Position numbers and translations under genes: made by a program. DNA of 41,232 nt from a virus (taxonomy: Duplodnaviria > Heunggongvirae > Uroviricota > Caudoviricetes). The DNA is taken from IMG/VR virus record IMGVR_UViG_2877263951_000005; one strand, 5' to 3'. This document shows, in pieces, positions 22,271 through 24,271 of the stretch. Below the pieces are notes generated by a model. It made no database searches, was not told the origin of the DNA, and worked only from the letters and a program-made list of their open reading frames with translations. Numbering within the stretch: the stretch's first letter is position 1; each line of letters opens with the position of its first letter.

Positions 22271-22516
22271 GGCAAAAATGGGGCAAAACGCTGTATAAGG
22301 GGCAAAAAAGGGGCAAAAAAGAGTGGGTTATCGTAGCTTATTGTTGTCGCTGATAATGTTTAACATATTGAAAAATAAATAAAATACTTATGAGTCAGAT
22401 AGTTGTGATTTTTGCCCTTACTTGTTCAGGTTGTATTGTTCTTTCTTTGTAATTTGTTGATTTTCTTGCATTATTTCAGTTCTCTGGTACTAAATGGGGC
22501 AAATTGGGGGCAAACT
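22271..22516. repeat. GGGGCAAA(A) repeat cluster (candidate integrase arm-type sites / att region)
   Basis: Six direct copies near 22271-22320 and 22493-22513 plus one inverted copy at 22410-22418, immediately 3' of an integrase gene. Confidence 0.5.
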
Positions 22517-22522
22517 TTGCAA

Positions 22523-23162
22523 CTACGATAACCGCGCATTCAACATGGCTATCTGTTCGTCGTTCATGTCATCAATCCACATACCGTAAATTTCATACAC
22601 CATTTGCGCAGTTTCATGCCCCATCTGGCTGGCTATAAATGCCGGGTTCGCTCCTGCCGTCAACAGCCAGCAGGCAAAAGTATGTCGCGTGTGGTACGGA
22701 TTACGGCGGCGAATACCAGCACGTTTTACTGCTGCATTCCATCTTGTACCCAAACTGCTTACCGAGTAATAAGGTTTCTGTTTTTCGTTACACACCCTGG
22801 GCATGAAAACAAAATGCAGTTTTTGTTTTTCAGTTCTGCCGTACTCCCGATGATAAAAAGTGATTTCGCTTTTGCGATGATGCCCGGTCAGTTTGTATTG
22901 CTCCTTCAGTGCTTCAAGAGCCGGCTGCAGTAATGTTACCGTCCGGATCCCGGCATTTGTTTTTGGGGGACCGAACATATCAAGTATCGTCAGGTTTCTT
23001 CTGACATTCACAATTCCCTTCTCGAAATCCACATCCTCCCACGCCAGAGCTGCCAGTTCCCCGTGACGAAGCCCGGAGTAAACGGCAAATTTCCACAAGT
23101 TTTGGCTCTGTCCTTTTTCACTTTCCATTAATGCATTGAATTCTGTTTTAGATAACGGGTCA
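22523..23162 (-). pseudogene. tyrosine integrase, C-terminal catalytic fragment
   Basis: ...YSGLRHGELAALAWEDVD...HTRHTFACWL...Y catalytic signature; 5' part replaced by IS1. Confidence 0.8.
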
Positions 23163-23217
23163 GGTAATGCTGCCAACTTACTGATTTAGTGTATGATGGT
23201 GATTTTAAGGTGCTTGC

Positions 23218-23493
23218 GTGGCTTCCATTTCCATCAGATGTCCTTCCTGCTCCGCTACTGAAGGCGTGGTGCGTAACGGCAAAAGCACTGCCGGACATCA
23301 GCGCTATCTCTGCTCTCATTGCCGTAAAACATGGCAACTACAGTTCACTTACACCGCCTCTCAGCCCGGTACGCACCAGAAAATCATTGATATGGCCATG
23401 AATGGCGTCGGATGTCGCGCCAGTGCACGCATTATGGGCGTTGGCCTCAACACGGTTTTACGTCACTTAAAAAACTCAGGCCGCAGTCGGTAA
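23218..23493 (+). CDS. insA: IS1 InsA
   Basis: 91-aa InsA frame. Confidence 0.9.
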
Positions 23494-23915
23494 CCTCGCG
23501 CATACAACCGGGCAGTGATGTGATTGTCTGCGCTGAAATGGACGAACATTGGGGCTACGTCGGTGCTAAATCACGTCAGCGCTGGCTGTTTTACGCGTAT
23601 GACAGGATACGGAGGACGGTTGTGGCGCACGTCTTCGGTGAACGCACTCTGGCCACACTGGAGCGTCTTCTGAGCCTGCTGTCGGCCTTTGAGGTCGTGG
23701 TATGGATGACGGATGGCTGGCCGCTGTATGAATCACGCCTGAAGGGAAAGCTGCACGTTATCAGCAAGCGTTACACTCAGCGCATTGAGCGACATAATCT
23801 GAATCTGAGACAACATCTGGCAAGGCTGGTACGGAAGTCACTGTCGTTCTCAAAATCGGTGGAGCTGCATGACAAGGTCATCGGGCATTATCTGAACATA
23901 AAACACTATCAGTAA
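23412..23915 (+). CDS. insB: IS1 InsB frame
   Basis: 167-aa InsB frame. Confidence 0.9.
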
Positions 23916-23930
23916 GTTGGAGTCATTACC

Positions 23931-24102
23931 CACCGGAACTGATTTGATGAACTATCAACGCTCTTAAATTCCCGGCCTTTTTAATGTTACTGTTAGTAAT
24001 CTCCCAGCCTTTCAATGTTTCCCGACATCGTTTTCCTCGAAACATGAACCAGATGCGAATGTATTTACCTCGAATCTCGACACCTGTTGGTAATTTAGAC
24101 AT
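23931..24102 (-). pseudogene. tyrosine integrase, N-terminal arm-binding fragment
   Basis: MSKLPTGVEIRGKYIRIWFMFRGKRCRETLKGWEI... typical integrase N-terminal domain; frame ends at the IS1 boundary. Confidence 0.7.
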
Positions 24103-24103
24103 A

Positions 24104-24271
24104 TCATGAGTCTTTGATAAACTGATTTATCTTCGGATAGTTGTACCAGATAATCCCTCGCTTACTGTCTGGCTTCCCTAAAGGAGATACTCGTTTGAAG
24201 TGGAAGCCTTCCACCCAACAGTTCTGGCGGTATGCTTCAATTTGTCTGGCACCCAGACCAGTGCGAAGCAT
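24104..24271 (-). CDS. excisionase-like protein (Xis), possibly N-terminally truncated
   Basis: 55-aa frame whose stop lies 1 nt before the integrase ATG; start codon is only 6 bp from the IS629 end. Confidence 0.45.

Follow-up and report, generated by a model that had tools for sequence, protein, structure and literature searches.

A complete Rac-family attP inside the sit island of Shigella flexneri, a circularly permuted single-copy prophage

We examined a 41,232-nucleotide stretch of the Shigella flexneri chromosome (CP026765.1, positions 1707913 to 1749144; IMG/VR virus record IMGVR_UViG_2877263951_000005), referred to here as the window, which carries the sitDCBA operon among phage genes (the sit island). 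Positions 22269 to 22522 of the window are a complete, unrecombined phage attachment site (attP, P-O-P') of a Rac-family, IntR-type lambdoid phage. The island around this site is one phage-genome equivalent with its ends joined; its gene order is the vegetative one, a circular permutation whose break lies in the immunity region, and in a sister S. flexneri genome (CP182555.1) the bacterial site (attB, B-O-B') in the ttcA locus is unoccupied. The site in the window is a fossil: both intR and xisR are inactivated, because intR is split by an insertion sequence (IS), IS1, with the loss of 422 bp, and xisR has lost its start. A sequence-only reading of the window had described att-like repeats beside an integrase gene and had proposed, from the contiguity of integrase and tail genes, an unusual history for the prophage.

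Results

The region between sit and intR is P-O-P'

The common core (O) is the 26-bp sequence TTGTTCAGGTTGTATTGTTCTTTCTT at 22423 to 22448 (+ strand). It was identified by comparison with relatives, as the sequence-only reading had proposed: matches of the window to the left and right prophage junctions (attL and attR) overlap around it, and the portion exactly common to both is these 26 bp. The core is identical in attL and attR of Escherichia coli K-12, in both FORC064 sites and in the attP sites of E. coli H22 and Jnd12, and with a 1-bp offset it is the 26-bp feature annotated as attP in phage Rac-SA53 (KU052037, positions 722 to 747).

Both arms of the site are phage derived. The P arm (22269 to 22422, + strand, ~154 bp) matches the phage side of Rac attR, with 93.9% identity to K-12 (window match 22270 to 22464; positions 25807 to 26002 of our K-12 Rac reference, L004), and also aligns with attR of the sit prophages in FORC064, CFSAN029787 (enteroinvasive E. 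coli, EIEC) and FDAARGOS_944. In an alignment of seven att sites with four cargos, homology among sites with different cargo starts at ~22269. The P' arm (22449 to 22522, + strand, ~74 bp) matches the phage side of Rac attL and continues to the intR stop codon. Window positions 22422 to 23164 are 96.9% identical to the K-12 Rac left end, attL and intR (L004 2900 to 3642), and the P' arm shares 99.6% identity with the CFSAN029787 attL side. Leftward of the core, the window tracks attR and departs from attL (ttcA body) exactly at the core boundary; rightward, it tracks attL (P' arm and intR) and departs from attR (ancestral ttcA 5' end and uspF). With an attR-like P arm and an attL-like P' arm around the core, the site has the structure P-O-P' and is thus a complete attP. 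The proposal that this is an attP of the unrecombined type in phage gene order is thereby borne out, since 22270 to 22422 aligns with the phage side of attR and the sequence from 22449 onward with that of attL. Indeed, three features of a Rac-type attP are present: the shared core, phage-derived arms on both sides, and adjoining remnants of the cognate int and xis genes. A search of the window for a second att copy found none.

An attL (B-O-P') would carry a bacterial half-site, the ttcA body, against the core, and none is present in this region. The sequence-only reading had named an attB-derived half-site within 22200 to 22520 as the mark of a true attL; that interval contains none. The only bacterial-looking sequence is a phage-borne mimic of the ttcA 5' end (22419 to 22472, - strand), read from the sequence as MQENQQITKKEQYNLNK followed by a stop. 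It is a copy of ttcA codons 1 to 17 (from 22472 to 22422) and is common to all Rac-type phages; Liu et al. (2015; PMC4632033) describe the TtcA N terminus as supplied by Rac. In attL the copied codons continue into the ttcA body, whereas in the window the frame enters the P arm and stops at 22419 to 22421. Since the mimic codons end at a stop within the P arm, no ttcA body is attached.

A consensus scan for integration host factor (IHF) sites returned matches at 22361 to 22373 (- strand, one mismatch), 22378 to 22390 (+ strand, one mismatch) and 22450 to 22462 (- strand, perfect). These three IHF-like sites lie within ~100 bp at lambda-like positions; the window-wide count, 43 versus 39, is not above chance, and the sites near the core are of positional interest and only suggestive.

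The repeat cluster supplies candidate arm-type sites

The motif GGGGCAAA occurs seven times in the window, counting both strands, versus 1.63 on average and at most 6 in shuffles of the 41-kb window (0 of 100 shuffles reached seven). Five of the seven copies, all on the + strand, start at 22280, 22299, 22310, 22496 and 22507, a span of 235 bp (22280 to 22514) in which ~0.01 copies are expected by chance. This cluster adjoins the 3' end of the tyrosine-integrase gene intR, with the sitDCBA cargo and the tail-fibre genes on its other side, as the sequence-only reading had described.

The copies fall on the two arms. A P-arm repeat block (22270 to 22317, + strand) comprises a degenerate repeat, TGGCAAAAA, at 22270 and the GGGGCAAA copies at 22280, 22299 and 22310, and a P'-arm pair (22496 to 22514, + strand) comprises those at 22496 and 22507; both are candidate arm-type IntR sites. 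Among the seven aligned att sites, the repeat block TGGCAAAAATGGGGCAAAA...GGGGCAAAAAAGGGGCAAAAAA is the most conserved stretch of the P arm and is kept down to ~80% overall identity, and the P'-arm pair is identical across every attL and attP copy compared. An inverted GGGCAAA (22411 to 22417, - strand), 6 bp off the core, is less conserved in divergent att sites and its role is uncertain. The N terminus of K-12 IntR is an Arm-DNA-bind_2 domain (Pfam PF12167, E = 3.9e-26). Taken together, the enrichment, the block conservation and this domain suggest that the GGGGCAAA copies are most likely arm-type sites, which the N-terminal arm-binding domain of IntR would bind.

The number of P-arm copies varies among strains. 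A 30-bp deletion between direct GGGGCAAAA repeats reduces the three P-arm copies (equivalent to window 22280 to 22317) to one in most S. flexneri attP copies and in S. boydii attR (six loci compared), and all three are retained in the window strain and in the E. coli genomes.

intR and xisR are both inactivated

The C-terminal catalytic part of intR (22523 to 23164, - strand; 214 codons; Pfam Phage_integrase, E = 4.6e-24; stop codon at 22523 to 22525) is 96.9% identical to K-12 intR and 99.6% identical to that of CFSAN029787. It is followed by a 768-bp IS1 copy (23163 to 23930), one of four in the window at 99.7 to 100% identity. The pieces flanking IS1 correspond to L004 3001 to 3642 and 4065 to 4236, and the intervening 422 bp (L004 3643 to 4064) are gone. 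Beyond IS1, the N-terminal 57 codons of intR and an xisR remnant (23931 to 24102 and 24104 to 24276, - strand) correspond to L004 4065 to 4410 at 95.1% identity; window 23931 to 24276 is 99.7% identical to CFSAN029787 and also matches a further locus, L036 (1140 to 1485). The xisR remnant lacks its first 43 nt, and another IS3-family element begins at 24277. Full-length K-12 IntR contains Arm-DNA-bind_2 and Phage_integrase domains, and XisR matches DUF1233 (Pfam). The interval that the sequence-only reading had marked as the repeat cluster, 22271 to 24271, contains the att site nearly whole, but it also takes in the integrase remnant, IS1 and most of xisR.

The island is one phage genome in permuted order

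As a reference for gene order, we used the complete ttcA prophage of E. coli FDAARGOS_944, which runs ttcA-attL-intR ... sitDCBA-attR-uspF. Read from left to right, the window is colinear first with positions 11003 to 48472 of this prophage and next with its positions 1 to 8236. The order in the window is ydaU, replication genes, Q-like gene, tRNAs, a deletion of the morphogenesis genes, tail fibre, sit, attP, int, xis, gam, recE, kilR and rha. The right half of the prophage, from ydaU' through the replication and nin/Q-like genes to a tRNA cluster (1153 to 11205, + strand, with IS1 and IS600 interruptions; Pfam), corresponds to prophage positions 11003 to 20267 at 96 to 99% identity. Window 16988 to 22464 corresponds to 42994 to 48472, and window 22448 to 34894 corresponds to 1 to 8236. 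Within the latter, the IS-interrupted early-left region (25428 to 34894, - strand; AAA_24, gam, recE', racC, ydaE, kilR and ash/rha; Pfam) equals FDAARGOS_944 1836 to 8236 and is also colinear with CFSAN029787. Relative to FDAARGOS_944, the window lacks the lysis, head and tail genes (prophage 20268 to 42993) and ~2.3 kb of the immunity region (~8237 to 10555), where the permutation opens.

The two sides of attP match the two ends of one EIEC prophage, that of CFSAN029787, at 99.58% (sit side) and 99.6 to 99.7% (int side). This agreement and the colinear permutation indicate that the island derives from a single phage and not from two. Further, no phage module is duplicated in the window; apart from IS elements, the sole long repeat is a tfa segment of 712 bp (17670 to 18381 and 35655 to 36366), whose second copy belongs to an ipaH prophage remnant.

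ttcA is unoccupied in a sister genome

A tandem lysogen keeps attL at ttcA. For the DISCRIMINATING test, we therefore inspected the uspF-ttcA locus of S. flexneri CP182555.1, which was located via a strain-specific UspF variant and whose sequence is 99.85% identical to the window across 18004 to 24785. The locus reads ompN-uspF, ancestral ttcA 5' end, core, ttcA body, dbpA and zntB, with no prophage between; it is an unoccupied attB. In this chromosome, attP lies at ~1.338 Mb and attB at ~1.761 Mb, ~423 kb apart, with their cores inverted relative to each other. Independently, Liu et al. (2015; PMC4632033) reported four S. flexneri strains in which TtcA' has its ancestral form and ttcA is free of any Rac-like prophage.

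The ends of the island point to IS-mediated movement. The left junction, seen in CP026788.1, joins K-12 position 1392426 inside pgrR to a 1,264-bp IS600-family copy and then to ydaU at codon 4-5; on the K-12 map, 19.5 kb separate this breakpoint from ttcA. On the right flank, an IS graveyard and the right end of an ipaH prophage are followed by pphA-yebW-yebV-rsmF in inverted order. A secondary, IS-mediated move had been offered as one explanation of the arrangement, and both the pgrR'-IS600-ydaU junction and the inverted pphA-yebW flank agree with it.

The same phage and the same junction occur in other genomes

The sit phage normally lies in canonical order, sit-attR-uspF, as it does in FORC064, CFSAN029787, FDAARGOS_944, S. 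boydii Sb227 and CP026807. The arrangement of the window, sit-attP-int::IS1-xis, is also present in the S. flexneri-type assemblies CP182555.1, CP097828.1, CP189683.1, CP007037.1 and CP033510.1. Its presence in at least five further assemblies means that it is not an assembly artefact. The synteny comparison with other sit islands that had been suggested thus separates a canonical form from the form in the window.

In a survey of E. coli, 502 genomes covered at least 80% of window 22000 to 22560, and we inspected the best 50 of these 502 rows. A sit-attP junction is present in seven E. coli genomes, those with full-length matches; all other rows among the best 50 of 502 end at the core, as attR does, so that ~495 are apparently canonical. 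An intact Rac attP is found in 38 of 5426 complete E. coli genomes. In all seven sit-attP genomes, the match to the window ends at 22754, after the last 231 bp of a second intR. E. coli H22 (NZ_CP120563.1) has the order ttcA-attL-intR, full prophage, sit, attP, 231-bp intR remnant, ~2 kb of debris and uspF, and its attR core is also deleted. The sit-attP junction in H22 is a decayed tandem-lysogen remnant at ttcA.

Two further records were encountered. E. coli Jnd12 (NZ_CP095820.1) has an intact Rac attP that joins a tail-fibre/pin/ydfK prophage end to a Rac intR-xisR-recET-kilR early region; the integrase of the prophage on the tail-fibre side lies beside rspB (the Qin locus), the Rac early region ends at betT, and the arrangement is apparently a composite produced by rearrangement between prophages. 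'Salmonella phage SPF_0923' (ON032529.1), considered as a free-phage attP reference, was rejected: it carries uspF, ompN and ydbK, hence attR. Although deposited as a complete phage genome, this record runs sitDCBA, attR, uspF, ompN and ydbK and is a mis-delimited prophage.

Other features of the window

The sitDCBA cargo operon (18612 to 22061, - strand) lies next to the P arm and is annotated as sitA-D in all comparators; window 16984 to 22464, on the sit side, is 99.6% identical to CFSAN029787. Tail-fibre and tail-fibre-assembly genes (16257 to 18411; Pfam Caudo_TAP and DUF4376) lie beyond sit. The region upstream of sitA (22062 to 22252) contains a palindrome, AAACATAGCAACGGCTATGTTT, at 22095 to 22116 and GAAAATAATTATCATT at ~22138 to 22153, which may resemble MntR and Fur boxes. 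Positions 22100 to 22252 are 91.6% identical to the lambda b region (~25245 to 25398).

The phage-borne tRNA cluster (10895 to 11205) encodes Met-CAU, Arg-UCU, Thr-UGU and Gly-UCC, and homology to the canonical prophage ends exactly at the 3' end of tRNA-Gly. A 534-amino-acid tyrosine recombinase (11320 to 12924; Phage_integrase and DUF6538) begins 115 bp past the cluster. Within positions 10895 to 13990, there looks to be a small integrative element inserted in the prophage's own tRNA gene, at the site of the missing 22.7 kb (lysis, head and tail genes); this putative element is truncated by IS1 at 13990.

The IS load of the window is very high: four copies of IS1, two of IS2, three complete IS600-family copies plus a partial one, and no fewer than two further IS3-family elements. 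The IS graveyard (34895 to 35654) separates the Rac-type early region from the ipaH prophage remnant and contains a 62-bp terminal fragment of an ISEc52-like element, inverted relative to 26612 to 27861, and apparent fragments of two other transposase genes. The chromosomal ipaH gene (36576 to 38291, - strand; LRR_TTSS and NEL E3 ligase) lies just downstream of the second DUF4376 tail-fibre-assembly copy (35655 to 36366), which is 97% identical to 17670 to 18381. In its prophage, ipaH fills the 'moron' position that is taken by sit in the other one, and the chromosomal genes pphA and yebW come next.

Discussion

The attP-bearing island and the empty attB were probably produced from a phage resident at ttcA by an attL x attR exchange, an IS600-mediated exchange and a large inversion. 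The phage would have integrated canonically at ttcA, as it still is in EIEC, other E. coli and S. boydii. An Int/Xis-type exchange between attL and attR, together with an exchange between an IS600 in pgrR and an IS600 at the start of ydaU, would then have swapped the order of the blocks; in effect, a circle would have been excised via one site pair and reinserted via the other, leaving attP and attB on the same chromosome. Finally, a large inversion ending in the ipaH prophage beside pphA would have carried attB ~0.42 Mb away in inverted orientation.

This history can be followed with five blocks: 1, up to pgrR'; 2, pgrR'' to ttcA; 3, int to rha; 4, ydaU to sit; and 5, uspF to pphA. The ancestral order is 1 2 3 4 5, and the observed order is 1 4 [attP] 3 -5 [attB] -2. 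Block interchange by the direct-repeat pairs attL/attR and IS600/IS600 would give 1-IS600-4-attP-3-IS600-2-attB-5, and the subsequent inversion would lie between the block 3/2 junction and the ipaH prophage. Five ancestral adjacencies are broken, of which the att exchange mends two; the three that are left need at least two further events, giving a minimum of three. The closeness of pgrR to ttcA would be explained by an earlier exchange at the IS600 pair, since attL has to lie on the circle that is cut out. Two other routes were rejected. An intramolecular IS600 inversion followed by an Int-mediated inversion fails on paper, since it would join pgrR' to the immunity end, the opposite of the observed pgrR'-IS600-ydaU. 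A Campbell-type insertion of the sit phage into the ipaH prophage via the 712-bp tfa repeat is contradicted by the DNA left of sit, which is 96 to 99% identical to the replication-Q part of the sit phage itself (FDAARGOS_944).

Tandem lysogeny is a textbook route to an attP inside a chromosome. Powell and colleagues reportedly described, in 1994, a PCR assay for the attP junction between tandem phage copies. A Powell-type tandem-lysogen assay was applied in PMC6814406, and such polylysogens are common enough for routine screening by this means. At ttcA, a second Rac-type phage could have entered attL or attR of the resident or recombined homologously with it to give attL-A-attP-B-attR, with the outer parts later deleted. 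This form is real at the locus in H22, and the seven E. coli genomes with sit-attP-int' and the 38 of 5426 with an intact Rac attP would fit it. Indeed, a tandem dilysogen was our first working model after H22. It predicts, however, attL at ttcA or the loss of ttcA, where CP182555.1 has an unoccupied attB and four strains have ancestral TtcA'; and the window is a single genome equivalent with no second copy of any phage module, its 1.1-kb repeat (48 to 1153 and 32713 to 33817) being IS2. We consider a tandem origin very unlikely for this lineage and rejected that working model. The unusual history implied by the sequence-only reading stands to this extent, but contiguity of int and tail genes is not by itself sufficient to show it, as the H22 tandem lysogen looks alike locally.

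Alternatively, the phage may never have used attP x attB in this lineage, and an infecting or transferred circle may have been caught by IS600 or by homologous recombination. Such direct capture needs one event fewer, with no attL x attR exchange, leaves both attB and attP intact, and could draw its homology from IS copies on the phage. Nevertheless, a breakpoint in pgrR 19.5 kb from ttcA would be a ~1% coincidence if placed at random and is expected if the events took place near a prophage already resident; a phage whose IntR works would, with attB free, ordinarily enter at that site; and the same phage (~99.5% identical) is canonically integrated in EIEC, other E. coli and S. boydii. Direct capture is therefore unlikely, although it keeps a real chance of being correct. 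The claim that the prophage did not enter the chromosome through this att site belongs to this less likely branch, given the same phage at ttcA elsewhere and the closeness of the left breakpoint to ttcA. An ordinary attL with bacterial DNA leftward could account for the resemblance of the 50 bp at 22423 to 22472 to the ttcA 5' end, but these codons are the phage mimic found in every Rac attL, they lead to the stop at 22419 to 22421 and not to a ttcA body, and the P arm, sit and tail-fibre genes lie leftward; this explanation is vanishingly improbable. Equally hard to credit is an A-rich repeat that arose by chance, or an assembly error in which excised circles were merged with an integrated prophage. 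The region is AT-rich and homopolymer-rich, but the enrichment of GGGGCAAA is far above that of the shuffles, the motif is conserved over divergent att sites, the junction recurs in at least six independent complete assemblies, and an IS1-disrupted intR could not make circles.

Several observations weigh against excision and recapture of a resident phage as the history of the island, or limit how far the account can be taken. The empty attB was seen in the sister genome CP182555.1 and in the four strains from the literature, not in the window's own CP026765.1. The partner junction that the block interchange predicts (rha end-IS-pgrR'') was not seen; at 34895 to 35654 there are IS fragments and no intact IS600. 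Any history requires at least three events, and several event orders reach the same end state. The replication-Q part is 91 to 96% identical to CFSAN029787 and 96 to 99% identical to FDAARGOS_944, making the phage a mosaic of known relatives. As for the repeats, we infer the binding of IntR to GGGGCAAA, and the 30-bp deletion, which removed two of the three P-arm repeats in most S. flexneri and S. boydii copies, is silent on function.

In lambda, the attP core lies between the arm-type Int sites P1 and P2 and P'1-3, along with IHF, Xis and Fis sites. Like lambda attP, the window site has asymmetric arms (~154 and ~74 bp), a short motif on both arms, an integrase with an arm-binding N terminus, and IHF-like sites between the arm sites and the core. 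Unlike lambda attP, its motif is GGGGCAAA, the arm domain is Arm-DNA-bind_2, and the core lies inside the protein-coding ttcA. K-12 Rac (attL in ttcA, attR at ttcC; IntR/XisR; PMC4632033) and the Rac-SA53 attP (KU052037) have the same core and the same phage-supplied ttcA 5' end, and K-12 Rac is 97% identical to the window site over the P' arm and intR and 94% over the P arm. In the window, unlike in K-12 Rac, the arms are joined as P-O-P' within the chromosome, int and xis are destroyed, and the cargo beside the P arm is sitABCD versus ynaE/ynaM/pinR. Lambdoid tandem polylysogens likewise have an intact attP between int and late or cargo genes, and H22 is an example at this very locus; the S. 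flexneri lineage differs from them in its empty attB and its one genome equivalent. The island is the same as 'PAI sit' of S. flexneri (Fisher et al. 2009, as summarised in PMC7545054): both have sitABCD among phage genes with many IS elements.

Thus, the Rac att sites, the lambda-type attP architecture, tandem lysogens and an IS-ridden, unstable sit island were already known. Our literature search, with the original Fisher et al. (2009) and Jin et al. (2002) papers outside its scope, found no description of the Rac-family identity of the sit island, of its intact attP, of a permuted single copy, or of attP together with an empty attB. The present analysis shows that the S. flexneri sit island is a single-copy prophage of the Rac family in circular permutation, and it places the attP of this prophage exactly. 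As far as the literature search showed, the GGGGCAAA copies are also the first concrete candidates for IntR arm-type sites.

The arrangement carries a warning for annotation: a chromosomal attP may mark a tandem lysogen, as in H22, or a recaptured circle, as in S. flexneri, and only the state of attB distinguishes the two. A more speculative proposal, which has some chance of being right but is a long shot, is that the sit island is a captured excision product (attL x attR, kept through IS600 exchange, with a virulence-associated transporter fixed and ttcA restored) whose inverted attP/attB pair may be a live substrate, flippable by the IntR of a superinfecting Rac-family phage acting in trans. 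If true, this would be a phage-triggered, reversible, megabase-scale inversion switch, with attP and attB ~0.42 Mb apart, on either side of the replication terminus as placed on the K-12 map. On the history that we consider probable, the island would represent a route to prophage grounding in which the excision chemistry was run and yet the element was retained, so that cargo such as sit would have become lastingly fixed in the chromosome and the interrupted host gene would have been restored.

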